Source of the DNA: Candidatus Poribacteria bacterium
Lineage (GTDB): Bacteria > Poribacteria > WGA-4E > WGA-3G
Assembly: GCA_964291315.2 (NCBI GenBank)
Contig: OZ219753.1
Coordinates: 2,784,001-2,848,000 of the forward strand
Direction of reading: 5' to 3'
Length of the DNA stretch: 64,000 nt
The position numbers and the translations under genes were made by a program. Under the pieces are notes generated by a model. It was not told the DNA's origin. It saw nothing but the letters and a program-made list of their open reading frames with translations, and made no database searches. Numbering within the stretch: position 1 is the stretch's first letter; every line of letters starts with the position of its first letter. Below, piece after piece: positions 1,860 through 16,362 of this stretch.

Positions 1860-3122
1860 TCACTCACGTATTTGACCGTCTCCGTATACGATGTACTTAT
1901 AAGTCGTTAACCCTTCAAGACCCATAGGCCCGCGGGAGTGGAGTTTTTGGGTGCTGATGCCGACTTCTGCTCCCAATCCGAATTCATAGCCGTCGGTGAA
2001 GACGGTGCTTGCGTTGACGTAGACAGCGGCAGAATCTACCTCTTTGAGGAACCGTTGTGCTGCGCTATAACTTTCGGTGATAATTGCATCGGAATGGTGT
2101 GATCCGTAGGTCTCAATGTGGTCAATTGCTGTGCTTATGTCGTCTACAACTCGGATAGATAAGATGTAATCGAGGTATTCGGTTCTCCAATCCTCTTCGG
2201 TTGCAGGTTTCGCCTTGGGACAGAGGGATTGTGTGCGTTTGCAGCCGCGAATTTCGACATTGGCATCCTGTAGGGACTCACAAAAAGTTGGAAGGAACTT
2301 GTCGGCTGTATCGGTATGGACAAGGAGTGTTTCTACTGCGTTGCAGACGGCGACTTTGTATCCGACTTTCGCGTTGATACAGATGTTGTGTGCCATTTCA
2401 GTGTCAGCGGTCTTGTCAACGTAGATATGACAGATACCGTCGGCGTGCCCGAGCACTGGGACATCGGATTCTTTCATCAAAGATTGGACGAATTCGTTGC
2501 TGCCGCGCGGAATGACGAGGTCGATGGACTCCGGTAGACGGATGAGCTCGTAGACCGCCTGCCGATCGGTGGTGTTAACAAACTGTATGGAATCTGGCAC
2601 TCCTTCTGCGGTGGCGGTATCGCTGAGGATGCTTGCAAGTGTTGCATTGGAGTGAATTGCCTCGGAACCGCCCCGGAGGATAACGCCGTTGCCGGATTTG
2701 ATACAGAGGGCGGATACTTCGACGGTAACGTCCGGGCGCGATTCATACACGACGGCGACAACCCCGATAGGGACGCGGACTGTACCGATTCTGAGTCCGT
2801 TTGGGCGTTCTGCCATGCTGATGACTGCTCCGATCGGGTCGGGAAGTGCGGCAACTTGGCGGAGGTTGTCTACCATTCGTTCTATTTTTTTGTCGTCGAG
2901 TAAGAGACGTTGCATGAGCGGAGCGGCGAGTCCTATCTTTTCGCCATTTTCAAGATCGATGCGGTTGGCTGCCTGAATTTTGTCTTTGGAATTCTGCAAG
3001 TTTTCAGCCATGGCTAAGAGTGCATGATTCCGGATGTCTGCGGAGCTTCGGGATAGAATCCGCATCGCTGATTTTGCCTTCCGCGCTTGTGATTGGATGA
3101 GTTGTTGGATGTTTTGGGGCAT
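1860..3122 (-). CDS. proA: Glutamate-5-semialdehyde dehydrogenase
   Basis: PIGVVAVVYESRP, LRGGSEA, CNAVET, EFGLGAEVGISTQKLHSRGPMGL; start at ATG 3122 (MPQN). Confidence 0.97.
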   Translation of the reverse strand: MPQNIQQLIQSQARKAKSAMRILSRSSADIRNHALLAMAENLQNSKDKIQAANRIDLENGEKIGLAAPLMQRLLLDDKKIERMVDNLRQVAALPDPIGAVISMAERPNGLRIGTVRVPIGVVAVVYESRPDVTVEVSALCIKSGNGVILRGGSEAIHSNATLASILSDTATAEGVPDSIQFVNTTDRQAVYELIRLPESIDLVIPRGSNEFVQSLMKESDVPVLGHADGICHIYVDKTADTEMAHNICINAKVGYKVAVCNAVETLLVHTDTADKFLPTFCESLQDANVEIRGCKRTQSLCPKAKPATEEDWRTEYLDYILSIRVVDDISTAIDHIETYGSHHSDAIITESYSAAQRFLKEVDSAAVYVNASTVFTDGYEFGLGAEVGISTQKLHSRGPMGLEGLTTYKYIVYGDGQIRE

Positions 3123-3368
3123 AGTGTTCCTTCTAATGCTCAAGCGATAGATAATTAGGGGCTGGTTAATATTATAATGCAACACCTATAAAATTTGCAA
3201 GGGGGTTTGTAGTCAAACAGGATAGTATGCCAGGACTGGAATTTGGGAATCTTTGACCTTATTATATTTCTCTACTATACGCTCGACTTGCAATGCAATC
3301 TGGATAATGAAGCTGCATGTGTCTATTTTTCCTTGTGAGGCGTGCTATGGCAGTGAATTTATCCGAGG

Positions 3369-4202
3369 CTAAAGCAAGAGACGTAATCTATCTTCTGCGA
3401 CTTTGCAGTATTCGGGGGATATGTCTATTCCTATGTAGGAACGTTGATGTTTAAATGCGGCGACACAGGTTGTTCCGACACCTGAGAATGGGTCCAAAAT
3501 AATATCGCCTTTGAAACTGAACAGTTTTAGGACTCGGTGTGCTAATTCCTCGGGGAACATTGCGGGGTGTTTGAATTTTCCCATATTTCGTTCGGGTGCG
3601 ATTGTCCACTTTGCGGTTACCCACTCTTTGAATGAGTTGGCATCAATATCGGCATTTTTTGGGTCGCCTGCTTTTTTTAAATTTCCCTTGCAAAAGACCT
3701 CTAAGAACTCCCATGTGTATTTGAGATAGGGGCTAGATGGGCTTTTCCAGCTACCCCAGGCTGTGAATTTGCAGTTGTAGTGGTTTTTCTCCCATAAGAT
3801 CTCACCTTTCCAGATAAGTTTTTTCTGCATAAAGTGTTGAGAGATAAGATGATGTGTTGGAATGTAGTCTGAAAATAGGGGCTGAATGTTAACGATGATC
3901 CGTCCGCCATATTTCAAGACTCTGATACATTCATCAAAGATAGAGAATAGTACTTTGAAGTAAGAATCCCATGCGAAGGCATCTTCGGTATTCTCATAGT
4001 CGAGTCCGAAGTTGTAGGGCGGTGACGTGAAAATGAGGTCGATACAATTATCCGGTAGATTCTTGAGGACGACTTCTGAGTCGCCACAGATAATTTTATC
4101 GGTAAACCCAGGCGGCAGCGGGTTGTTTGCCTTTGTCCAATTATGGGTGTTGGCGTAATAGTGCTTTCCACGTGCTGCTTCTTTCTCTTTTCTGTTTTCC
4201 AC
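3369..4202 (-). CDS. Beta-class site-specific DNA methyltransferase (N4/N6 family, SPPY, likely m4C)
   Basis: Motif IV TSPPY precedes HPAMFP and motif I DPFSGVGTT; lies directly downstream of res. Confidence 0.9.
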   Translation of the reverse strand: MENRKEKEAARGKHYYANTHNWTKANNPLPPGFTDKIICGDSEVVLKNLPDNCIDLIFTSPPYNFGLDYENTEDAFAWDSYFKVLFSIFDECIRVLKYGGRIIVNIQPLFSDYIPTHHLISQHFMQKKLIWKGEILWEKNHYNCKFTAWGSWKSPSSPYLKYTWEFLEVFCKGNLKKAGDPKNADIDANSFKEWVTAKWTIAPERNMGKFKHPAMFPEELAHRVLKLFSFKGDIILDPFSGVGTTCVAAFKHQRSYIGIDISPEYCKVAEDRLRLLL

Positions 4203-4217
4203 TTTGCGTTCTCTGTT

Positions 4218-6785
4218 TTATTTATCATCATTCAGCTGAGCGGAAATTTCAAGAAATTTATTCTCGCTGAATATCAATTGAAACATGCCTTTCCGTTTAG
4301 GTCCATCATGTACGACCATAGTTCCGGCGGCATTGAAAGCGCCCTCAAGCGTTTCCAGCACTTTGCGTTTATATTCGGTGTCAAGGTTGCCTGCAAGATG
4401 TTCTCCCTTTGTGTCAAAAATTAGGACGCGGGTTCCGCCGCTGGCTTCATTCGCCATGGCGACGAAATCGGGATAGATGCGTCCCTGTTTCCAACCTTGC
4501 AAGTAGTACTCACCGCGTTGACGCGCGGCGACTCGGTGCCACCATCGCAATGCTTTTTCTTCATCAAGATAGTAGGCAAATTTCTTTTCCAACTCGCTAT
4601 CAAATTGCTGTTCAAATACCGGCTCAAATAGACTTAGCTGCACGGGTTCATAGTTGCTGGTGAGTAGCGGTCTATCCTCCGTGTGTACGTGTATTTTGTA
4701 GCTATCCACTATTCGATAATTGGGTTCCCGCGTTTCTAAGTCAAATCGGATTTCGCCGCAATCGAGTTTGTTACGGAAGACCTGCTCCGCCTGTTTTTCG
4801 ACGGTGTGTTTTACGTGCTCACGCAGGAGATGTGCAAGGTAGGAGCGTCTATCGTAAATTTCGGATTCAGTTGTGCCTTGGGCTGTAAGCGTTTCGTGTA
4901 GCTGTTGTGCAACGCGAGCGGCTTGCCAGAGATTCGGTATAATATCAGACAGGCGTCGCGCGAAATCGGAAACTCCGAAGGTTTTGTCAATGTGGGGTTC
5001 TTGGTCGGGATGGAAAACAGGCGCTGTCTCGTCAACGTCCACGGTTGCAGATTGGCGTCGGACGCTTTGGGAGGCGGAGTCCGCTGGATCCGGCGGTTCA
5101 ATTGCACACCAATCTATATGAGGTAAGATATGTGCTTGATAATTGAGGCGTATCCAATTGCCGCGGCGATCTTTATGGAGTACCATGGGTAGGTAAATAG
5201 ACTGATTCTGAAATCTTTCACGGCGCTTTATAGACTGCGTCTGAATTTCTTGTTTATCCGCTAATTGTTGTGAATTTGATGCCCCCATTACTTCGTTTCC
5301 TAAACCGGTGAGTCCTTCGGATTCCAAGCCATTTTTGACTTGTGTGACAACGGTTCCGACCTCAACGTTATTGCAGTAGACGTAACACTGGTCCAATAGC
5401 TCGTTCCCGGTGCGTTGTGCATGTGGCTGTCGCATCACACGGCCCACGAGCTGCGTAATAGCTCTTTGTGCCTGTGTATTGTCGAGCATTACCAAGAGAT
5501 AGGCGAACGGGCAGTCCCATCCTTCCATGAGTGCGGATTTGGTGATGATCCAGCGGACCGGGGACAATTCTGAGAGGAGGTTTTCGCGTCCTAGTTCATC
5601 GTTTTCGGCTGACTTAACGCGAATTGCGTCCGGTGGTAATCCGAGTCTTATAAGGTATTCCCGAACATCTTCGGCATGGATATGATCTGTATCTCGTTGG
5701 TCTTTTCCGGTTCGTTCTACTCGTACAACGGCAATAGGGCGGATATATCGCCCGGTGCTGTTTTCAAAGGCCTTGGCTTCGGCATCAAGTCGTTCAAGCT
5801 CATCGACTGCTTGACTCAGTGTGAGCTGCCACTCGGCATTCGGGAACGAAGTTACCTGCACCGGCAGCTTAATCATCTCTTCTTTTTTGAGATCGGGGCC
5901 GCCGATATCTACGAGAAGATTGCTGATACCGCGGTTGGGCGTGGCAGAGAGTTCAATGACCATACGCGGGTCAAGGCGGTTGATGGATTTGGCAAATTCT
6001 TCGTTTGACACCCGATTTCTTGCGCCATAGGCTTTATGGGCCTCGTCTAAGACGACGACAGGCTGGAGCACCTTGAACACGTTGAACAAGCTCTGTTTGA
6101 TGAGGCCTCGTTCGGTATGACACTCCAGATCTGGATACATATTCAGCATTTCCGTATTGCGAAAGATTTCGTCTATGTCTGGGAAAAAAGTGGGATAGCG
6201 ACCCGTATCCCGAAACATCCGCAGGAATTCTTTGCCTTTCTGACGGTTTGCTGATGGCAACATGAGGAGCATGACACAGAGATAATTGGCAATGTCGTCT
6301 CTGTTGAAAGGGTCCTCTTTTTCGAGGAGCTTGATTCGCCCGCCACTTGCCCGGTTCAACATCTTACGGTACGGGTGTTGTTTGTTCCATAAGGCGGCTT
6401 TCGTTTGAGTATAGATTGCCTTGCTGGGCACAATCCACAGAACCAGACCGCGCTGCCAAGGCAGATGCTCTAACGCAGCGGCAGCAAGCAAGGTTTTACC
6501 GCCTCCCGTGGGAACTTTGAAGCAGATATGGGGTATAGGGCGGTTTGCATCATCGGTGCGGTCAACATATTCGCCGGCGGTCGCTGGAACGGCGTCGTTT
6601 TCTCTTAATTTTTTCCACGCAGCTTTCGGATAATTCCGCAACTCATCGGGGATCGGAATGTCAGTCGGTGTTTGTCTGAACACCTCCATCATTTTTTCTA
6701 ATTCATGTTGTGTCTCTGCAAGCGTCTCTAACCAACGTGCCAAGGCATCAAGGGCCTCGCGTTGATATTCTTTCAGTTCCATCAT
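4218..6785 (-). CDS. res: Type III restriction enzyme Res subunit (DEAH helicase plus PD-(D/E)xK nuclease)
   Basis: Walker A VPTGGGKT, LDEAH, SATP, LMEGWDCP, QLVGRVMR; C-terminal YPDF...FDTKG; adjacent to mod genes. Confidence 0.9.
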   Translation of the reverse strand: MMELKEYQREALDALARWLETLAETQHELEKMMEVFRQTPTDIPIPDELRNYPKAAWKKLRENDAVPATAGEYVDRTDDANRPIPHICFKVPTGGGKTLLAAAALEHLPWQRGLVLWIVPSKAIYTQTKAALWNKQHPYRKMLNRASGGRIKLLEKEDPFNRDDIANYLCVMLLMLPSANRQKGKEFLRMFRDTGRYPTFFPDIDEIFRNTEMLNMYPDLECHTERGLIKQSLFNVFKVLQPVVVLDEAHKAYGARNRVSNEEFAKSINRLDPRMVIELSATPNRGISNLLVDIGGPDLKKEEMIKLPVQVTSFPNAEWQLTLSQAVDELERLDAEAKAFENSTGRYIRPIAVVRVERTGKDQRDTDHIHAEDVREYLIRLGLPPDAIRVKSAENDELGRENLLSELSPVRWIITKSALMEGWDCPFAYLLVMLDNTQAQRAITQLVGRVMRQPHAQRTGNELLDQCYVYCNNVEVGTVVTQVKNGLESEGLTGLGNEVMGASNSQQLADKQEIQTQSIKRRERFQNQSIYLPMVLHKDRRGNWIRLNYQAHILPHIDWCAIEPPDPADSASQSVRRQSATVDVDETAPVFHPDQEPHIDKTFGVSDFARRLSDIIPNLWQAARVAQQLHETLTAQGTTESEIYDRRSYLAHLLREHVKHTVEKQAEQVFRNKLDCGEIRFDLETREPNYRIVDSYKIHVHTEDRPLLTSNYEPVQLSLFEPVFEQQFDSELEKKFAYYLDEEKALRWWHRVAARQRGEYYLQGWKQGRIYPDFVAMANEASGGTRVLIFDTKGEHLAGNLDTEYKRKVLETLEGAFNAAGTMVVHDGPKRKGMFQLIFSENKFLEISAQLNDDK

Positions 6786-6797
6786 GTTAGCGTCTCT

Positions 6798-7322
6798 CTA
6801 CCTTTCGTGGAGTGCATCGGGAAGTTGGCAGAATACGATGCGCATGCGGGTGAGTTCCCGCTGCCCTATGTAATTGCCTGCTGCATAGACTATCGCCTTT
6901 CTGCCGGTCTGATCGCTCGCCTCCCGCACCCGCTCTGCACGCTCAATGTTGAGAATAGCGGCATCGCTGCGGAGGTATGCAAGATCGGGTTTGTAAATGA
7001 GATAATAGTCGTTTTCAGCGTCGCTGTGAAAAAGTCCGTCGTCATTTTTCGCCGTCAATGCGTTGGATCCGACAGAGGTGCCGGAGGTGGTATATAAGAG
7101 GTTTGCGGCGAGTGCGGCATATGAGGGCAGAGCCTCTCCGGTGAGCATTGTCTCTACCTCCATCGGTTTTCCGAGGGTGCAGTAAGTGAACGATCCGCCC
7201 AGGCCGTCGCGAAGAGCGGTGTCTCGGGCCTTAGGGACACCTTTGATGACGCGTCTGACGCGTTCCGCGGTGATGGTATCGGCATAGTTTTCGCACTCGA
7301 TGAGGATAAACTTCCGATTGCC
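6798..7322. repeat. mod C-terminal direct repeat, copy A (partner 8882-9406, offset 2084)
   Basis: Visually identical apart from a few substitutions near the stop codon. Confidence 0.95.
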
Positions 7323-8416
7323 ACCATCCTCTCTGTTTAAAGCAAGAACGGCGTGGGCAGTGCTACCGCTACCAGCGAAGGAATCAAGGATAATAGCATC
7401 TTTGCTGTTTAACAACTCAAGTAAAAACTGAATAAATCTCACGGGTTTGGGCTGGGGGAAAACACCACCTTCACCAAATATATGCGAAGTTCGCGTGTCC
7501 CTTCAGAATTAAAACCTACAATTTCTGGTGAAAGGAATACGTCTGGCGGCTGCCCTTCTTGAACTTCAGACAGATAGCGTTTTACCCTCGGTTCATTGCC
7601 CGAAAAATCTATACGGCCCTCACTTTCCATACGGCGCAATGTTTCTTGCGCATAACGTGGATGCTGTCCAGAAGGGGGTGACCATACAACCCCATTTTTA
7701 AAAGTGAATGTGTAGGACGGGTAATAGTTTCTAGCACTGAGTGGATCAAGTTTATATTTGCCCCTCCCATCATTATCGTCATGCCGATAATTCGCTGACT
7801 TATCGATAACATAACGAATATATCGACTCTTATCTTCTCCAAACCATGATTTTTCTTTAGCATAGACCAAAGTGTAGTCAGCATTCAGATTAAAATCCTT
7901 GCTGGAGTTACGCACAGTATGCATTGCCCGTCGCGTAAGCACTGCAAAAAAGTTTTTCTCATCGAAAATCTCATTCATCAACATTCGGAGGTGGTGTACT
8001 TCATTGTCGTCAATAGAGACGAAAATGATACCGTCTTCTGAGAGGAGTTCCTTAAGAAGATGCAGCCTCGGCCACATCATGCAGAGCCATTTATCGTGGC
8101 GTTCCAAGTCCTCGTTATCCACGGGGGCGTTCTCCGTCAACCACTGCTGCATAAGGGGGCTATTCACGTTATCGTTATAGACCCAGTTCTCGTTGCCAGT
8201 GTTATAGGGTGGATCGATGTAGACGCACTTGATACGATTGGCATAGCGTGGGAGCAGTGCTTTGAGGGCGTGTAGGTTGTCTCCGTGAATAATGAGGTTG
8301 TCATCTGTATCGGATGGGTTGCAAGAGCGGTTTTCATCGGGTTCGAGGGGTCGATAAGGCACGGTGAGGTGGTGTGCGTAGATGTGCTGTTTGCCTTTGA
8401 ATTCAAGGGTCGGCAT
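6798..8416 (-). pseudogene. mod: Type III Mod methyltransferase allele 2, split by a single frameshift near 7478-7483
   Basis: ORF 8416-7439 carries DPPY and the TRD; ORF 7442-6798 carries FAGSG and the C-terminal domain. The -1 frame reads ELR-x-IFGEGGVFPQPKPVRF, matching KSIFGKKVFDNSKPVEL in allele 1. Confidence 0.85.
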
Positions 8417-8448
8417 ACCGGGAACTCCTTTAGAAAAGCACCAATGGA
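8015..8448. repeat. mod N-terminal and RBS direct repeat, copy A (partner about 10115-10548, offset 2100)
   Basis: Same protein sequence with scattered synonymous changes; similarity extends about 30 bp upstream of the ATG. Confidence 0.92.
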
Positions 8449-8491
8449 ATAATGCATAAACGCTGCTTTTATAGGGTAACGTGTGGCGCTA

Positions 8492-8719
8492 CTATTCAGG
8501 TGCTTTCAGCTGTGAAGCGGAGAAACTCAGGCACTTATACATTTGTCCATTGTGGTCGCTAAATTCTACTTCAAATGCTTCTCCGTTTGAAAGGATTTCA
8601 ACGACGGTGCCGCTTTCTCCGCGTTTGAGATTATGATTAGGTAAGCCTTGTGTGAGCGCGACAACATCCAGAAGTTTGATTTTGTTTTTTTGAGTGTGTG
8701 CATGCTTGTGTTCAGGCAA
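8492..8719 (-). CDS. DUF4926 domain small protein
   Basis: LLDVVAL...LKRGESGTVVEIL...FEVEFSDxNG is the DUF4926 pattern. Confidence 0.8.
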   Translation of the reverse strand: MPEHKHAHTQKNKIKLLDVVALTQGLPNHNLKRGESGTVVEILSNGEAFEVEFSDHNGQMYKCLSFSASQLKAPE

Positions 8720-8763
8720 TTTCAGCTTGTTCTCATCTATCTTGCTTTCAATTTGTTTAGTTA

Positions 8764-8793
8764 ATTATACTCAATTTGTTAAGCGGTTGTCAA
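8764..8793 (-). promoter_or_regulatory. Sigma70-type promoter for the DUF4926-mod2-res-MTase unit
   Basis: Minus strand TTGACA (8793-8788), 18-nt spacer, TATAAT (8769-8764). Confidence 0.65.
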
Positions 8794-8861
8794 GGTTTTC
8801 CGGTGGGTATCCGGACCAAGCATTTGATCGACAGGTAGTGCTGCGGACCCGCAATTGGCAC

Positions 8862-8885
8862 CGGCACATGGAGTGTGCCTATTAC
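8862..8885. repeat. REP-like palindrome overlapping the mod1 stop codon
   Basis: GGCACA-TGGAG-TGTGCC hairpin; the minus strand reads GTAATAGGCACACTCCATGTGCCG. Confidence 0.45.
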
Positions 8886-9406
8886 CTTTCGTGGAGTGCA
8901 TCGGGAAGTTGGCAGAATATAATGCGCATGCGGGTGAGTTCCCGCTGTCCTATGTAATTGCCTGCTGCATAGACTATCGCCTTTCTGCCGGTCTGATCGC
9001 TCGCCTCCCGCACCCGCTCTGCACGCTCAATGTTGAGAATAGCGGCATCGCTGCGGAGGTATGCAAGATCGGGTTTGTAAATGAGATAATAGTCGTTTTC
9101 AGCGTCGCTGTGAAAAAGTCCGTCGTCATTTTTCGCCGTCAATGCGTTGGATCCGACAGAGGTGCCGGAGGTGGTATATAAGAGGTTTGCGGCGAGTGCG
9201 GCATATGAGGGCAGAGCCTCTCCGGTGAGCATTGTCTCTACCTCCATCGGTTTTCCGAGGGTGCAGTAAGTGAACGATCCGCCCAGGCCGTCGCGAAGAG
9301 CGGTGTCTCGGGCCTTAGGGACACCTTTGATGACGCGTCTGACGCGTTCCGCGGTGATGGTATCGGCATAGTTTTCGCACTCGATGAGGATAAACTTCCG
9401 ATTGCC
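8882..9406. repeat. mod C-terminal direct repeat, copy B
   Basis: Near-identical to 6798-7322. Confidence 0.95.
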
Positions 9407-10516
9407 GCCGTCCTCTTTATTCAGGGATACGACAGCATGTCCAGTCGTGCCGCTGCCAGCGAAAGCATCCAGAACAATCGAGTCTGGCGAGGTAGACAAC
9501 GAAACAAGCCGCTTTATTAGCTCAACCGGCTTGCTATTGTCAAAGACTTTCTTGCCGAAGATAGACTTCTGCTCGTTTGTAGCGTCGGTTGTTGTTGCGA
9601 GATCGTAGTAAATCGTGCGCTCTTTAATAACTTTGTCTTTATCTGCCATCTCGTCAAAATAGATGACCTCGTAAGGGGTCCAACGCCCACTTCTTTTGAT
9701 CCAATGAATATGCTCTTGATCTAAAGCTGCAGGACGAATTCTCCAACGCCCCTCATTTCCGTCTGGGGCTTGTGGAAAGAAAGGGTTGCCATCAGGGTCA
9801 TCGATCGGATAAAACATTGTTGGTCTATCGGTTCTATAGGCTCCGGATCCCCATTTTTCGAGTTTCAGGAATTTACATTTTCGCCCATTCTTGACTTTAG
9901 GGAACTCGGTTTGCGTTCGCTGTGAAGTTCTGAAGTTCATTGTGTATGCATCGGTTTTTCGGTAACAGAGGAGGTCTTCATGCTCTCTGGCGTAGTATTC
10001 AGAATCTTGTCCGCCGCCCGCCTTTTTTCTCCAGATGAGATGTGCGACAAAATGTGTTTCCCCGAAAATTTCGTCCATTAGCATCCGGAGGTGATGTTGT
10101 TCGTTATGATCAATAGAGATGAAAATGATACCGTCTTCTGAGAGGAGTTCCTTGAGTAGATGCAGCCTCGGCCACATCATACAGAGCCATTTATCATGCC
10201 GTTCCAAGTCCTCGTTATCCACGGGGGCGTTCTCTGTCAGCCACTGCTGCATCAACGGACTATTCACGTTGTCGTTATAGACCCAGTTCTCGTTGCCGGT
10301 GTTATAGGGTGGATCGATGTAGACGCACTTGATACGATTGGCATAGCGGGGGAGCAGTGCTTTGAGGGCGTGTAGGTTGTCCCCGTGGATAATGAGATTG
10401 TCATCTGTATCGGATGGGTTACAAGAGCGGTTTTCATCGGGTTCGAGGGGTCGATAAGGCACGGTGAGGTGGTGTGCGTAGATGTGCTGTTTGCCTTTGA
10501 ATTCAAGGGTCGGCAT
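8882..10516 (-). CDS. mod: Type III Mod adenine methyltransferase allele 1 (intact, 544 aa)
   Basis: MPTLEFKGK start after AGGAG; HGDNL, YIDPPYNTG, HDKWLCMM, SID, KPVELI, DAFAGSGTT, GGNRKFILIE. Confidence 0.93.
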   Translation of the reverse strand: MPTLEFKGKQHIYAHHLTVPYRPLEPDENRSCNPSDTDDNLIIHGDNLHALKALLPRYANRIKCVYIDPPYNTGNENWVYNDNVNSPLMQQWLTENAPVDNEDLERHDKWLCMMWPRLHLLKELLSEDGIIFISIDHNEQHHLRMLMDEIFGETHFVAHLIWRKKAGGGQDSEYYAREHEDLLCYRKTDAYTMNFRTSQRTQTEFPKVKNGRKCKFLKLEKWGSGAYRTDRPTMFYPIDDPDGNPFFPQAPDGNEGRWRIRPAALDQEHIHWIKRSGRWTPYEVIYFDEMADKDKVIKERTIYYDLATTTDATNEQKSIFGKKVFDNSKPVELIKRLVSLSTSPDSIVLDAFAGSGTTGHAVVSLNKEDGGNRKFILIECENYADTITAERVRRVIKGVPKARDTALRDGLGGSFTYCTLGKPMEVETMLTGEALPSYAALAANLLYTTSGTSVGSNALTAKNDDGLFHSDAENDYYLIYKPDLAYLRSDAAILNIERAERVREASDQTGRKAIVYAAGNYIGQRELTRMRIIFCQLPDALHER

Positions 10517-10548
10517 AGAGGGAGCTCCTTTCGAAAAGCACCAATGGA
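10115..10548. repeat. mod N-terminal direct repeat, copy B
   Basis: Near-identical to about 8015-8448. Confidence 0.92.
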
Positions 10549-10767
10549 CGGCTGCGGTTGTGCAGATTCCGCTGTGAGTTTTGTTAACATTGCTTCGCTT
10601 GTGCGGGGGCATCATTGCTCTGATATTCTAGGCTTCCATGTTAGCATATTATTTCGCAAATGCCTAACATTTTTGATACTGTCTAAGCGAGAATTTAATC
10701 CAAATGTGTGTCGCAAAATTTGTTTTAAACGGCTATGTAGCGTATAATAGGGACACACTACAAAAAC

Positions 10768-12309
10768 ATGATTGAGTTCAGCTCGGAGGACGCTGCGATA
10801 ATGAAACATTTTGATACTCCTACATACACCCCGGTATTCCCAGGCCCCAATACAGAGCTGCTTGAGGCGCAAGCGAAGGTTTGCACGGGGCCGCATCAGA
10901 CGCGTCCGTTAGGTATAACGTCTTCGGATTCACCGCAGCCAGGGGCGCTCCTTGCGGTAATTTTAAAGTCTCTAGCAGGCGGACTCCCGGAAGCAGAGAC
11001 TGCTTCGGCGGCACAGATGGGTGCGTTTTTCGCAGCGATGCGGCTCCGCTCCTATTTTCCAGCATCAACACGGTGGAGCCCGGCAGAGGAAGCAGCGTTT
11101 CATAAATATCACTCGGCGCTCACAGAGCAATTACCGCCGGAGATTCAATACCTGATGAGTGCTGATCATGGCTACGCCGCGCGGAATCCGAGGGAGGCGG
11201 TTGTTGTGAAGGCGCTGGCAAAGATTTTACGGGCAGAACATCTGAGTTACATTGAGACCCGCGAGATGTGTGAAGCGATTCTTAGTGACGAAGTAGCGCC
11301 GGCGCTCAAAGGTGCTGCGTTGATCGGACAACGGATGAACCGCGAAACCTATGAGGAGGTACGCGGCTATTTAGATGCATTTTTTGGACCTGAAGCGGTT
11401 CAATCGATTGATATTGCCTCCCTCACGCATTTCGGACAACCTTACGATGGGGCGACCCGCTATTTTCGGCCCACGCTCTTTGTAGCAGCGGTGCGCGCAG
11501 CGCTCGGTGAAGCGTCACTCCTTCACAGTGTAGATGTGATGCCGCCGAAAAATGGGGTGACAGAAGAAGCTATCTTGAAAGCGCTTGGTGCCAACACCCA
11601 ACTCTCGCTTGAGCAGACGGTGTCACTGATTACGAACGAATTGGTAGGATTTGGGTATATTGGTCAGCGTGAATATAACCGTGCTGCTTATGATTTGCGG
11701 GAGTTGCGGGTGCACATCAAGAAACGTCCCCCTTGGGCGGCCACAGAGAAGGCGCAGCAGTTCTTTTCGGCGCGGGAGTCGAACTATATGGTGCTTGGCT
11801 ATTATCATATCGGTTACGAGAAGCCGCTTCTCCGGCTAGCGTGGGAGCGCGAATTTGACGCTGCCCTCGCTGTGAAAGGAGAAGAAGGGACGAGTCATTA
11901 TGCGCTACGGCTTGGTAAACCGTCTACAGCTGACAGAATGGCGGTCAATTATTCACAAGGTTTTCGTCGTGTGCGGGGAGACCGCGAAGACTTCGCTATG
12001 GATATAAACCCGGAAATTTACGGATTCGACTATGCGCGGAGTCCACGTCCGGAGGTCGTAAGTGCCCAGGCGTTTGCGGAAGCAGGTGTGGCGGCTCTCT
12101 CTGGCGAAAAAGGACATATCTACGATAGGATTTTGCTGAACGCAGCGATGGTTGACCATCTATTAGGAATCTGCCCGGAACCCGATGAGGCTTTTGCGCG
12201 TGCGAGATCTGTGATGGATGATGGAAGTGCTTTGAAGCATCTTCAGGCGTATGTAGCAAATAGCCGCAAGTTGCCTGCATCCAACGGTCACGGGAACTGC
12301 TGCCCGTAG
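10768..12309 (+). CDS. Anthranilate phosphoribosyltransferase-like protein (TrpD2/YbiB-like, glycosyltransferase family 3); start may be 10801
   Basis: AQMGAF, GQPYDG..RYFR, MPPKNGVT, LRxxIKKRPP, KGEEG; lacks the canonical TrpD GTGGD motif. Confidence 0.7.
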   Translation: MIEFSSEDAAIMKHFDTPTYTPVFPGPNTELLEAQAKVCTGPHQTRPLGITSSDSPQPGALLAVILKSLAGGLPEAETASAAQMGAFFAAMRLRSYFPASTRWSPAEEAAFHKYHSALTEQLPPEIQYLMSADHGYAARNPREAVVVKALAKILRAEHLSYIETREMCEAILSDEVAPALKGAALIGQRMNRETYEEVRGYLDAFFGPEAVQSIDIASLTHFGQPYDGATRYFRPTLFVAAVRAALGEASLLHSVDVMPPKNGVTEEAILKALGANTQLSLEQTVSLITNELVGFGYIGQREYNRAAYDLRELRVHIKKRPPWAATEKAQQFFSARESNYMVLGYYHIGYEKPLLRLAWEREFDAALAVKGEEGTSHYALRLGKPSTADRMAVNYSQGFRRVRGDREDFAMDINPEIYGFDYARSPRPEVVSAQAFAEAGVAALSGEKGHIYDRILLNAAMVDHLLGICPEPDEAFARARSVMDDGSALKHLQAYVANSRKLPASNGHGNCCP

Positions 12310-12313
12310 TCAA

Positions 12314-13858
12314 TTACCATGGATGCGTCCGAAACGGCGATGCTGGTAGTCCGTCCTTGTTTATCAAATTGGGTTCGGCATTTTGATGCCAGCCGAATCG
12401 GGCTGCGATTGGCTTTGCGAGGGTGTGGCTGGAAACGACGACGGTATCGCCCTCAATTATTGCTTTTGCTTCAACGAATTTCTTGTTTTCACCGGCGATT
12501 TCAAACCATGTGAGTGGGTTCTCGTCTCGTGCCATCAATCCGCTACCGACGTGGTCGAATTTGAGTCGAATTGTGTTTCCCTCCACCGTCATGGATTCGT
12601 AGAGTGGCCCGGAATAGGTTGTATCCGCCTGCCCGTAAGTTTTGGCAAGGGCCCATAATGCTAATCGTCTCCCGACCTCTTGTTTGTTTTGGGGGTGGAT
12701 GTCGTTGAGGTTGCCGATGTCTGTGGTCACAACCATGCCGGTGTTTGGGACGGATAAGGTTGCGGTTTGTGCTTCCCAAATTTGTGGCAGAGAAAGTGGA
12801 TTTTTGATCCAACCGCTGTAATCGAAAGGTGCTAGTTGCACGAAATAGAAAGGGAAATCGCCTTGTTTCCAGACTTGGCGCCATCCTTTAATCAGGGCTT
12901 TCATCTTGTCATGATAGAGCATTCCATCTTGCAGATTTGATTCGCCTTGATACCAGAGTGCGCCTCGTATAGCGTATGGAACAAGCGGATGTACCATACC
13001 GTTGTAGAGCCCTGTGGGTCTTGCTTGGTGCCTCAACGGATGTCTATTGTCAGGCATCTGCGTAAGGTGTCTCCCGGTTTCTAACGCCTCTCGTGTCTCC
13101 GTTATCCATACCTCAATTTCTTTCATTTTTTTCGGCTGCTGCTGGCGGTAGGCGGAATGTACCTCCTGAATCTCTTTAGATATGGATTCAAGGGTCGGGA
13201 CACTGGCGAAACCAACAGGCGGTGTCCACGGTTCGATGCGGGTGCCACCCCAGGAGGTATTGATTAATCCGATCGGTACATCGAGGTTTTTATAGAGTTT
13301 CCGACCGAAATAGTAAGCGACGGCAGAAAAATTAGCGGCTGTCTCTGGCGTGGTTTCGGACCAGTCGGCTTCTACATCGTTCTGAAGCAATCCGGATGGA
13401 ACTCTCGGCACGTAGAACAGTCGGATATTCGGATAGTTCGCTGCGGCAATCTCTACTTCACTGTCTTTTGAGGCGCTGACAGACCACTGCATGTTTGATT
13501 GTCCTGAGCAGACCCAAACCTCTCCAAACAGAACGTTCGTCAGTTCAAGCGTGTTACGGCCAGCGACTCGGAGTGTATAGGGACCCCCGGCCTGCATAGC
13601 GGGAATTTTGATTTGCCAGTTGCCTTCTGCGTCGGCAGTCACGGTGGTTGAGAAAATGGGTTCGGCTCCTTCCTCGTCGGCGCTAAGATCTATTGTGACT
13701 TCTTCGCCCGCAGCGGCCCAACCCCAAATAGGGACCTCCCTATCGCGTTGCAATACCATGTTACTACCGATGATGTGTGGCAGGGTAACCTGAGCGTGGA
13801 CGAGGGGTTGTGTGAAAAGTAATAGAAAAGTGATAAGACATAGTTTGATTCGTTTCAT
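12314..13858 (-). CDS. Secreted sialate O-acetylesterase (SGNH family)
   Basis: Signal peptide; NMVLQR, GEVWVCSGQSNM, WGGT, WYQGESN, DIHP. Confidence 0.93.
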   Translation of the reverse strand: MKRIKLCLITFLLLFTQPLVHAQVTLPHIIGSNMVLQRDREVPIWGWAAAGEEVTIDLSADEEGAEPIFSTTVTADAEGNWQIKIPAMQAGGPYTLRVAGRNTLELTNVLFGEVWVCSGQSNMQWSVSASKDSEVEIAAANYPNIRLFYVPRVPSGLLQNDVEADWSETTPETAANFSAVAYYFGRKLYKNLDVPIGLINTSWGGTRIEPWTPPVGFASVPTLESISKEIQEVHSAYRQQQPKKMKEIEVWITETREALETGRHLTQMPDNRHPLRHQARPTGLYNGMVHPLVPYAIRGALWYQGESNLQDGMLYHDKMKALIKGWRQVWKQGDFPFYFVQLAPFDYSGWIKNPLSLPQIWEAQTATLSVPNTGMVVTTDIGNLNDIHPQNKQEVGRRLALWALAKTYGQADTTYSGPLYESMTVEGNTIRLKFDHVGSGLMARDENPLTWFEIAGENKKFVEAKAIIEGDTVVVSSHTLAKPIAARFGWHQNAEPNLINKDGLPASPFRTHPW

Positions 13859-13986
13859 GTAGTTGCTCCTTATATGAATCAGCGAGGTTACTTGTTTGTT
13901 CTTCTAATAGTGTTGAGTCTTTCCAAATCCCGAGCGACCTTTCTCAGGGACTCAAACGTGTCATTTGGATCAAGGCAACGAATGTG

Positions 13987-16362
13987 TTAATTGCCATTCT
14001 CACTGCCTTGTAGACGTTCAGCGAGGTAGCTGTTACGTTCCATCACTTGATTATTTCGGATACAAATGGAGAGTGCTTGTTTGGTACCGACGATCACGAC
14101 GCGTTCTTTTGCCCGGGTAATACCGGTGTAAAGGAGGTTTCGTTGTAACATAAGATAGTGTTGCGTGTGTAAGGGGATAACGACTGCGGGGTACTCGCTG
14201 CCTTGTGCCTTGTGAATCGTTGTGGCGTACGCTAGGACGAGCTCGCCGAGGTCTGCTGTATCGTAAGCGACCTGTTTATCAGGGAACCGGACGCACACTT
14301 TTTTATCCACATGTTCGATTGCGACAATCCTTCCAATATCGCCGTTAAATACGTCGTAGTCGTAATTATTGCGGACCTGCATCACCTTATCGCCGATGCG
14401 GAAACCGCCTGCGGTGCGAGATCGGCTGTGGAACTGCGATACTTGCGGATCCGTACGAGGGGCGAAGCGTGCTTTTTCCAAGGGGTGGGTTGCTGGTGCA
14501 GCATATTCAGTGTTCAAAACTTCTTGAAGACGTTCATTGAGATTTTCGGTGCCGAGTGCGCCACGCCGCATTGGGCAGAGGAGTTGGATATCATCTATGG
14601 GATGGTAGTTGTAGTGTTGCGGCAGCCGGTGAGCAATGAGGGAGCATATTACCGTGACGATTTTGTCAGGGTCGTCCTCTTGTATAAAGAAGAAGTTTCG
14701 ATCGGCATTGCCAGTGAGTTCTGGGAAGTCTCCTTTGTTAATACGATGCGCGTTCATAACGATCATGCTCTCTTGTGCTTGCCGGAATATTTCAGTTAAT
14801 TCTATGACGGGGATCCGACGAGAGTCAATGAGCGATTTAAGCACATTGCCTGCTCCGACAGAAGGGAGCTGATCAACATCACCGATGAGGATAACGGAGG
14901 TCGTCGGCCGGATAGCTCGCATCAAACTATTCATTAAGATAATGTCGACCATAGACGTTTCGTCGACAATGACGACATCGGTGTTTAACGGGTTTTGGCG
15001 GTCTCGTTTAAATCTGTTAATGTGTGGCGAAAATTCGAGAAGGCGGTGAATCGTTTTGGCTTCCCCGGCGGTTGTTTCGCTGAGCCGTTTTGCGGCGCGT
15101 CCAGTGGGGGCGGTTAAGGTGACGTGTTTGCCTTGTGCTTCAAACAGGCGAATCATGCCGACAGTTGTTGTCGTTTTCCCGGTGCCGGGGCCTCCAGTGA
15201 GAATCATCGCTGGCGCGGTCATCGCTGTATGGATTGCCTCGCGTTGCTGGGGTGCAAAATGAATCTCCATTTCCGTCTCTAACTCAGTCAGGGCTGCATT
15301 ATTAATAAGCGAGGAAGGTTTCGGGGCTCCGTAATTGGGGGCGTGTGCTTTGTTAGATAGGAGTCTCAAGAGCTGGTTTGCGATTCCCATTTCAGCATAG
15401 TAAAAGGGTGCGAGGTAGATAGCAGAATGATTTTGAGGTGTTGACTGTTGGTCGTTGGTTGAGGGAGTCCCTGGAATCTCTTGTGGATCGCTAATTTTGT
15501 AGTTATCCAAGGGTTCTTCGACAGCAGCTTGTTGATCGGGGGGCATGGTGTCTGCAACGTCTAGACCGACGACTTCCTCTTTTTCGATGAGGGTGCGGAT
15601 GCCTTCTTCGATTGCTTCATGTTTTTGTTCAAGGATGGTTTGACACGTCTCAATAAGTTCCTTATGGTGCTGAAAGACGTGTCCTTCATCTGCTTTTTGG
15701 CTTAGAACGTATTTGATTCCTGCTTGGACTCTGTGGGGTGCGTCCTTTTCTATACCGAGCTTCTGCGCGATTGTATCGGCTGTCACGAATCCGATGCCGT
15801 AAATATCGTCTGCGAGCTGATAGGGATTCTCCGTGACAATGGCGATTGCATCGTTTTTGTAAGTTTTGTAAATTTTTGCGGCGTGCGTTGTGCTCACATC
15901 GTGAGATTGAAGGAAGAGCATAACGTTTTTGATTTCACGTTGTGCCTCCCATGCCTCTTTAATGATTTTCACCCGGTGCTGTCCGATGCCAGGGATACGC
16001 GCGAGCTTTTCAGGTTCCCGCTCGATGATATCCATGGTATCCATGCCGAATTTTTTAACGATGCGTGTTGCCATTTTTGGACCGATCCCTTTAATCAGAC
16101 CGGATCCGAGGTATTTCCTTAATCCGACTACATTTGCCGGCAAGATTGTTTCGTATTTCTCGATTTGGAACTGCCTACCGTATTTAGCGTTATCTACCCA
16201 CTCGCCTTGGAGAAGAAGGCTTTCCCCGGGGTTGACAGTTGCTAGATTACCGACGACAGTGATGAGTTCGGAGTGGGCGCGCGCTGCTAGTCGTCCGACA
16301 GTATAGCCGGTGTCAGGGTTCTCATAAACAATACGTTCAAGTATGCCGTGTAGCGTTTCCAT
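13987..16362 (-). CDS. recD2: ATP-dependent RecD2-like DNA helicase
   Basis: HhH region (GIGPKMA), GGPGTGKT, APTGRAAKRL, DETSM, GDVDQLPSVG, YATTIHKAQGSE, LYTGITRA. Confidence 0.95.
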   Translation of the reverse strand: METLHGILERIVYENPDTGYTVGRLAARAHSELITVVGNLATVNPGESLLLQGEWVDNAKYGRQFQIEKYETILPANVVGLRKYLGSGLIKGIGPKMATRIVKKFGMDTMDIIEREPEKLARIPGIGQHRVKIIKEAWEAQREIKNVMLFLQSHDVSTTHAAKIYKTYKNDAIAIVTENPYQLADDIYGIGFVTADTIAQKLGIEKDAPHRVQAGIKYVLSQKADEGHVFQHHKELIETCQTILEQKHEAIEEGIRTLIEKEEVVGLDVADTMPPDQQAAVEEPLDNYKISDPQEIPGTPSTNDQQSTPQNHSAIYLAPFYYAEMGIANQLLRLLSNKAHAPNYGAPKPSSLINNAALTELETEMEIHFAPQQREAIHTAMTAPAMILTGGPGTGKTTTTVGMIRLFEAQGKHVTLTAPTGRAAKRLSETTAGEAKTIHRLLEFSPHINRFKRDRQNPLNTDVVIVDETSMVDIILMNSLMRAIRPTTSVILIGDVDQLPSVGAGNVLKSLIDSRRIPVIELTEIFRQAQESMIVMNAHRINKGDFPELTGNADRNFFFIQEDDPDKIVTVICSLIAHRLPQHYNYHPIDDIQLLCPMRRGALGTENLNERLQEVLNTEYAAPATHPLEKARFAPRTDPQVSQFHSRSRTAGGFRIGDKVMQVRNNYDYDVFNGDIGRIVAIEHVDKKVCVRFPDKQVAYDTADLGELVLAYATTIHKAQGSEYPAVVIPLHTQHYLMLQRNLLYTGITRAKERVVIVGTKQALSICIRNNQVMERNSYLAERLQGSENGN

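Follow-up and report, generated by a model that had tools for sequence, protein, structure and literature searches.

The window analysed here, 64,000 nt of contig OZ219753.1 from the genome of a Candidatus Poribacteria bacterium, contains a restriction-modification (R-M) locus of Type III in which two tandem mod genes are followed by a single res gene. The two mod genes have common 5' and 3' regions, here called arms, and differ in their centres, which encode the recognition domain. The reading that we favour, with some reservation, is a stable two-specificity Type III system that is kept Res-compatible by selection and gene conversion, and not a fast switch. On the minus strand, the locus runs from mod-distal (Mod-D, 10516..8882) through a promoter-like site (8793..8764), a DUF4926 gene (8719..8492) and mod-proximal (Mod-P, 8416..6798) to res (6785..4218) and a small methylase gene (4202..3369). 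Mod-D is an intact 544-aa Type III methyltransferase with recognition class D (PF01555, E-value 1.2e-40). Mod-P has a different recognition class, P, and consists of two open reading frames (ORFs) as assembled, both of which match PF01555. The res gene encodes an 855-aa helicase-nuclease subunit (PF04851, E-value 3.4e-13), and its ATG lies 12 nt past the Mod-P stop. An earlier interpretation of this DNA, made from the letters alone (the sequence-only reading), had proposed a Type III system of two mod alleles with one res after them, and both domains and layout support this. The locus thus combines same-strand mod paralogs, common 5' and 3' regions, differing recognition domains and one res.

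The shared arms are far beyond chance. The 3' arms (minus strand, 6799-7322 in Mod-P and 8883-9406 in Mod-D, offset 2084) are 524 bp long and differ by 3 mismatches, at 6836, 6837 and 6864, with a longest perfect run of 458 bp. They encode the last 174 residues, comprising the end of the methylase core and the C-terminal domain, and only 1 of these 174 residues differs. The 5' arms (minus strand, 8010-8448 in Mod-P and 10110-10548 in Mod-D, offset 2100) are 439 bp long with 23 mismatches (94.8% identity), and extend 32 nt upstream of the ATG to include the AAAGGAG ribosome site. Between the arms the two genes are unalignable, with 20-48% identity per 60 alignment columns. GC content is 43.1% in the res-proximal centre (7323-8015) and 46.5% in the other (9407-10115), compared to 55.4% and 50.5% in the arms. 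These values match what the sequence-only reading had described, namely a common 3' arm of about 525 bp, highly divergent centres and an AT-richer centre in the res-proximal allele. It had also recognised a 5' arm of about 430 bp together with its ribosome-site region; its term near-identical, however, suits the 3' arm better. The arm offsets further confirm its geometry, in which a crossover would delete 2084 bp (3' arms) or 2100 bp (5' arms) and would remove the DUF4926 gene either way.

Both Mods show the motif order of the Type III Mod family (beta-class N6-adenine methyltransferases), which is motif IV (DPPY), recognition domain, motif I (FxGxG). DPPY lies at aa 68 in Mod-D, where FAGSG follows at aa 352; in Mod-P, DPPY is found at aa 68 of the first ORF, and FAGSG falls in the second. 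Homology to solved Type III Mods was assessed on Mod-D, where it extends over the full length. The phmmer matches included 6k0w (1.8e-46), the EcoP15I Mod 4zcf_A (3.9e-44) and Mbo45V 7dsu (5.7e-37). A structure model of Mod-D built from 26 homologs (pLDDT 75.3) aligned with 4zcf_A over 475 residues (VIA-align, Z 30.3, rmsd 11.6), and its residues 1-538 span chain residues 55-644, reaching through the C-terminal domain. Res, directly after mod, carries the SF2 helicase motifs and C-terminal PD-(D/E)xK motif of a Type III Res, with GGGKT in its translation, DEAH at aa 247 and PD-x17-DTK at aa 772. These features point to a Type III R-M system, for which hemimethylation of a short asymmetric site and ATP-dependent cleavage that requires two inverted sites are predicted. 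In EcoP15I, as described in PMC4490356, the Mods dimerise via their N-terminal and methylase domains, and ModA docks Res via its methylase domain and C-terminal domain. There, the site is read by the recognition domain of ModA and methylated by ModB (PMC4490356). If these domain roles are transferred by homology, the 5' arm would encode the dimerisation and catalytic parts of the window's Mods, and the 3' arm the Res-docking end.

We compared the two copies with a third allele of the same gene, which lies elsewhere in the genome under study (G000). This orphan allele (Mod-O, G000:C4:2488962-2490623, or 4963-6624 of homologous locus L009, where C4 is a contig of G000) is about 300 kb from the locus and encodes an intact 553-aa protein. 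Its arms are those of the tandem copies at about 92%, and its centre, which differs from both of theirs, represents recognition class O. Its neighbours are a GT2 glycosyltransferase and a SurA-like gene, and no res was found among the Pfam-scanned genes in the surrounding 14 kb. All three copies are equally distant from one another in the 5' arm. Over 438 columns there are 29 differences between Mod-P and Mod-D, 33 between Mod-P and Mod-O, and 28 between Mod-D and Mod-O. The corresponding synonymous divergences (dS) are 0.235, 0.271 and 0.278, and non-synonymous divergence (dN) is 0.003-0.011 over the three pairs. For Mod-P and Mod-D, the first 135 codons give a dS of 0.235 and a dN of 0.006, from 17 synonymous versus 2 non-synonymous changes. 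Mod-P and Mod-D are therefore old copies, under strong purifying selection in the 5' arm.

The 3' arm has a different history. Over 524 columns, Mod-P and Mod-D differ at 4 positions, compared to 34 for Mod-P and Mod-O and 30 for Mod-D and Mod-O. The difference between the arms of Mod-P and Mod-D (29 of 438 versus 4 of 524) is highly significant (Fisher p = 3.7e-7). In the 3' arm, dS is 0.016 between Mod-P and Mod-D (0.235 in their 5' arm) but 0.188 and 0.168 from these to the orphan. Homologous recombination has therefore homogenised the 3' arm recently, or replaced part of it. The breakpoint is at the border of the recognition segment, 7322/7323. Recombination in the conserved arms, as the sequence-only reading had supposed, has thus happened. 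The flanks of the copies are also mosaic. Upstream, Mod-D has 32 nt in common with Mod-P, while downstream 159 of 166 nt, the promoter-like site included, match the DNA past the Mod-O stop at 92%. In the motif I region, Mod-P is closer to the orphan (78%) than to Mod-D (63%). Comparison with the nearest relatives shows that both recognition segments are under purifying selection, with dN 0.082 and dS 1.04 for the class P segment versus that of locus L031, and dN 0.109 with saturated dS for class D versus L033.

The sequence-only reading had not noticed that Mod-P is interrupted by a frameshift, its two ORFs being 8416..7439 (325 aa) and 7442..6798 (214 aa). The frame changes at 7483/7484, within minus-strand CGC|ATATAT, where there is no long tract. 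We examined four public runs (X1-X4) from a single study, which were compared as contigs and contain more than one strain. In all four, the contigs carry one extra base at 7483/7484 at 100% of depth, and the X1 and X2 contigs otherwise match the window exactly over 7384-8050. The extra base, set as N, restores a single 539-aa Mod-P frame. The restored codon aligns with an Asp of the relatives L031 and L028, within the conserved stretch ELRDIFGEGGVFPQPKP, and the L028 homolog is in frame over the equivalent site. The frameshift is very probably an assembly error, and otherwise a private mutation. Because the contigs of all four runs restore the Mod-P frame, both mods are intact in the sampled population.

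Both recognition segments and the DUF4926 gene were present in all four runs, including strains that are 95-99% alike. Depths in X1 were 990 for segment P, 951 and 936 for segment D and 1023 for the flank; in X2 they were 3110-3806, 3454 and 3491, respectively. This similarity is no more than a weak hint in favour of the stable two-specificity reading. The contigs are k-mer contigs that break at the identical 440-525-bp arms, and a crossover within identical arms makes no new sequence. No 2084- or 2100-bp joint was found among contigs that cannot bridge the arms, which says nothing either way on deletion alleles. One X2 contig, with a near single-copy depth of 2882, runs to 8801, then through three extra letters to 6743; this junction was not seen in X1, X3 or X4. 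On the gene strand it joins the first 43 nt of res to the DUF4926 promoter region. A tandem duplication of the 2059-bp unit 6743-8801, or its circular form, would produce such a junction; the unit consists of the promoter, DUF4926, Mod-P and the start of res. A search of all loci with 8882-8717 and the res start, for a res-5' remnant that could explain the junction, gave nothing outside G000.

Two other joints were considered and rejected. The joint from 7401 to 10058 (X1, depth 580), a candidate hybrid allele, was read as the orphan paralog, whose 92% arms were matched at the 90% threshold. The joint from 8122 to 10374 was dismissed as another organism or a paralog, given its low depth (6.5 and 119.9) and 29-nt side. 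The spacer between the mods contains a local divergence patch. An X1 contig over the DUF4926 gene and promoter region has 9 differences from the window in 400 nt, at 8638-8761, compared to 0-1 differences in the X1 contigs over both recognition segments.

In the mechanism that we propose, each Mod would methylate a distinct short asymmetric motif, as expected from its own start codon, ribosome site and recognition domain, and would protect that motif. Either Mod, and perhaps also a mixed dimer, would recruit the single Res, which would restrict DNA lacking either mark. This is suggested by the N-terminal 135 and last 174 residues, which are almost identical and correspond to the dimer and Res-docking parts of EcoP15I. 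Purifying selection and occasional homologous recombination between the copies would keep the shared parts alike, the latest event having probably homogenised the whole 3' arm up to the recognition-segment border. Repeat-driven phase variation (a phasevarion) of Mod-P or Mod-D was rejected. Neither mod contains a G/C run of at least 6 or an A/T run of at least 7, and TRF (minimum score 30) found only two trivial 2-copy repeats, one of them inside Mod-D (9923-9938), leaving no frame-shifting tract in either gene. Both Mods would therefore be on together.

Related loci were searched for with both Res and Mod-D as queries. The Res query gave six metagenome loci with 689-5368 nt of upstream DNA each, the shortest of which barely tests mod number. 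A single mod was found upstream of res in all six, one of them (L026) with the order DUF4926, mod, res. Among 40 related genomes, one (the genus relative G004, locus L029, C1:2570000-2588000) had tandem mods, with arms of 87% identity over 501 bp and 91% over 614 bp and differing centres. In L029, three CAP12/Pycsar-type TIR-domain genes lie between the two mods. Insertion sequences precede res, and the second mod is set apart from it by genes for a DDE transposase, a TnpB-like and a resolvase-type protein. The Mod-D query gave 78 genome loci, of which L038, L044 and L075 had two full-length mods with arms of 86-91% and 88-95% and differing centres. A res lies downstream of the tandem mods in L029, L044 and L075, while L038 has none within 8 kb. 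Forty of the 78 loci are in genomes titled Candidatus Poribacteria, all three tandem loci among them; the others include 16 from Dehalococcoidia and five each from Latescibacterota and Spirochaetia.

The recognition classes of the window recur in these loci. Class P was found in seven loci at 69-86% identity, two of them with the same allele, and class O in L041 and L046 at 72-75%. Class D was found in L033 and L034 at 79-80%, with N-terminal arms that are only 60-61% identical. Over time, recognition segments thus pass from one backbone to another. The Mod family (L031-L108, arms with 60-92% protein identity) also occurs in genomes titled Bdellovibrionales, Synechococcus, Binatia and Nitrospinales, and its spread suggests exchange within a shared habitat.

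Multi-mod arrays are also found elsewhere in G000, where a comparison with Mod-D over 4.4 Mb gives 56 methylase-like matches. L011 (G000:C1:314000-330000) contains three tandem Type III mods of another family with arms of 89-93%, and one res (L011 11999-14650). Each of its mods is split at a G8 tract (4426-4433, 6500-6507 and 10554-10561) into a 176-aa ORF and a PF01555 ORF. PF12564 was confirmed for the first 176-aa ORF, and a tract of G7 or G10 would give proteins of 653-671 aa. Either the tracts serve phase variation as in Mycoplasma, or all three copies suffer from the same homopolymer assembly error. An uncharacterised 486-aa gene lies on the opposite strand between copies 2 and 3. At G000:C4:1468112-1472403, two mods (582 and 561 aa) share two arms, one of 910 bp at 94.7% and one of 542 bp at 90.6%, and are adjoined by an 887-aa ORF (region to 1475169). 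Three tandem methylases of about 400 aa with arms of 90-93% lie at G000:C4:1975995-1979619, and two paralogs with arms of 97% and 89% at G000:C4:1550882-1553484. The centres of these tandem paralogs on C4 are variable.

Several observations weigh against a stable two-specificity system. Two mods occur in only 3 of the 78 genome loci and in none of the six metagenome loci. Since the single mod is the norm, having two may be a passing condition over longer timescales. Mod-P is out of frame in the assembled genome, and if this is real in the strain, only Mod-D would serve Res there. The two specificities themselves are predicted from the unalignable centres only. Contig depth is a poor measure, and since the four runs come from one study, the arrangement can be called fixed within that study at most.

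The sequence-only reading had favoured a recombinase-free specificity switch or reservoir. Extended to the orphan, this rival supposes that arm crossovers or conversion among the tandem copies and Mod-O would be frequent enough to make the population heterogeneous as to the recognition segment that lies beside res. The recombination footprint that ends exactly at the recognition-segment border, the mosaic copies and the different backbones that carry class D elsewhere all agree with such exchange, and the 8801/6743 contig of X2 provides a variant junction downstream of a mod. However, these footprints fit rare events over evolutionary time equally well. The arms are direct repeats, and their recombination yields irreversible deletions, not switching. 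The copies have persisted to a dS of 0.235 under selection, and the presence of both segments in every run is the very outcome that the sequence-only reading had named as refuting it, an arrangement fixed with the same recognition domains across populations, as far as one study reaches. Type I hsdS shufflons, such as the pneumococcal and inverting Mycoplasma pulmonis loci, likewise combine several specificity modules with one restriction enzyme. These shufflons have inverted repeats, usually with a site-specific recombinase, and switch reversibly. The window's repeats are direct instead, with no inverted repeats of at least 40 bp in 5000-15000 and no recombinase domain in the Pfam scan of genes at 3369-13858, and we rejected an invertible or recombinase-driven shufflon. 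The footprints show exchange in the arms and nothing supports frequent switching, making a switch unlikely. Its reservoir part holds on an evolutionary timescale, but not as a fast process.

It could also be that only one Mod works with Res, with the second copy either decaying as a duplicate or acting as a methylase of a solitary or regulatory kind. The assembled frameshift in Mod-P would fit this, as would the promoter-like site between the mods, which means that Mod-D need not belong to the res operon. The genome also has a res-less allele of the same gene (Mod-O), and in Mycoplasma agalactiae 5632, PMC9465063 reports no assignable motif for one of two tandem Mods. Yet the frameshift is absent from all four runs, in contigs that are otherwise identical over 7384-8050, and both copies show purifying selection in their arms and recognition segments. 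Because the end that docks Res (by homology) differs at only one of 174 residues, any expressed copy should bind Res. We find this explanation quite improbable. A concatenation by the assembler of two strain alleles of one mod would be conceivable in a metagenome-assembled genome (95.2% complete, 3.49% contamination) and with runs of more than one strain. Against this, the copies lie on either side of unique DNA (DUF4926 and the promoter), and read-derived contigs show separate flanks for each (X1 record 3, 8402-8801; X1 record 8, from the upstream flank into 10502; X2 record 14, 8788-8912). Each recognition segment is also at about flank depth and not half of it, which is weak evidence, the locus lies on a 3.26-Mb contig, and four other genomes have the same layout. 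Such an artefact is hardly credible. Lastly, the lineage might keep multi-Mod arrays as a combinatorial specificity system. Recombination among tandem and dispersed alleles (Mod-P, Mod-D and Mod-O) would then reshuffle recognition segments and at the same time homogenise the Res-docking arm, and mixed dimers of co-expressed Mods would add specificities to those of the two homodimers. The 8801/6743 junction would be an intermediate in the ongoing duplication or excision of the 2059-bp unit, and no fewer than three loci of Type III in this one genome would each combine one res with 2-3 mods. We regard this reading as speculative and rather doubtful. We retain the stable two-specificity system, in which both mods would be expressed and both would bind Res, conferring two specificities.

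Tandem mods with one res are an architecture already published for mycoplasmas, and the window places it in a new lineage. Mycoplasma bovis PG45 has three mods and one res at locus Mbo45ORF167P (bioRxiv 10.64898/2026.05.01.722158; PMC5909438), and M. agalactiae 5632 has two tandem mods and one res (M1/M2.Mag5632ORF1570P; PMC9465063). A multi-mod Type III locus of M. pulmonis is cited alongside these, and M. agalactiae strains with one and two mods are described as coexisting. Atack et al. attribute the mycoplasma loci to duplication followed by the gain of new recognition domains (PMC5909438). The published interpretation of these loci is likewise that one Res works with more than one specificity, each Mod protecting its own motif. 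As in the window, these are same-strand tandem mods with conserved 5' and 3' regions, differing centres and one res. Each Mycoplasma mod, however, has an (AG)n or (GA)n on/off tract, whereas the window's mods lack a simple repeat; in the L011 array, all three mods do have a G8 tract. The Mycoplasma mods are 65-71% identical overall, while the window's arms are 95-99% identical at the DNA level and include a fresh conversion tract. The hosts differ as well, the present one being uncultured, with a large genome, and probably a symbiont of sponges.

In Helicobacter pylori, Furuta and Kobayashi describe recognition domains that are exchanged by homologous recombination in conserved flanks, with recognition-domain trees that conflict with the remainder of the protein and homologous domains in distant taxa (PMC3467074). 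Where that study addresses unequal recombination between tandem Type III paralogs, it states explicitly that none was found (PMC3467074). The H. pylori paralogs are at separate loci, have their own res each and recombine via short similarities (8-117 bp), in contrast to the tandem genes and 440-525-bp arms of the window. The EcoPI and EcoP15I systems are described as having almost identical Res subunits and Mods that differ in the recognition domain (PMC8259958). The window resembles this pair in that related Mods with different recognition domains would work with the same or nearly the same Res, in the EcoP15I case as Mod2Res1 with docking via the Mod C-terminal domain (PMC4490356). The EcoP1I and EcoP15I alleles are on different replicons in different cells, whereas those of the window lie side by side in one operon.

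Finally, we looked at the other genes of the locus. It forms a 7-kb island flanked by two housekeeping genes, an aldehyde dehydrogenase gene (1860-3185) and a glycosyltransferase-family-3-like core gene (10768-12309). The insertion site does not appear conserved, as mod and res were within 12 kb of the core-gene ortholog in only one of 16 genus relatives (L118), where no aldehyde dehydrogenase flank was found. The site at 8793..8764 on the minus strand, between Mod-D and the DUF4926 gene, is a putative promoter with a 12-of-12 sigma-70-like consensus (TTGACA-18-TATAAT); across the region, promoter-like sites are not above chance (7 found versus 9.4 expected). The small N6/N4 DNA methylase of 277 aa (4202..3369, minus strand) starts 15 nt past the res stop. 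We rejected it as a conserved third component, as no homolog was found beside mod or res in 97 related loci, the single match being about 3 kb past res in L106. It appears to be an independent methylase within the island, either solitary or of Type II.

The DUF4926 gene (minus strand, 75 aa, TTG start, PF16277 E-value 7.3e-21) is the sole DUF4926 in G000. In L041 (3645-7973), L072 (3618-7976) and L099 (3002-7534), DUF4926 heads proteins of 1442-1510 aa, whose genes end from about 25 nt (L041 and L072) to 470 nt (L099) upstream of mod. In the L072 protein, the one that was Pfam-scanned, DUF4926 is joined by a Cap4 nuclease domain, TPR repeats and a weak match to a P-loop. L026, L039, L046 and L070 have shorter forms of DUF4926 next to mod or res, and L041 has a fragment between the two genes. 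The large protein seems to be encoded by a defence gene that recurs beside this Type III family, and the 75-aa gene of the window is probably what is left of such a larger gene upstream.

For annotation, the Mod-P frameshift should be treated with caution, as it is probably not biological. More broadly, the design of several Mods with one Res is not peculiar to minimal-genome pathogens, but recurs, and does so without slippery repeats, in an uncultured, probable sponge symbiont whose large genome is packed with methylase genes. The old 5' arm and the freshly homogenised 3' arm are a clean natural case of concerted evolution acting on what is, by homology, the Res-docking part. This contrast between the arms offers a testable link between gene conversion and subunit compatibility.

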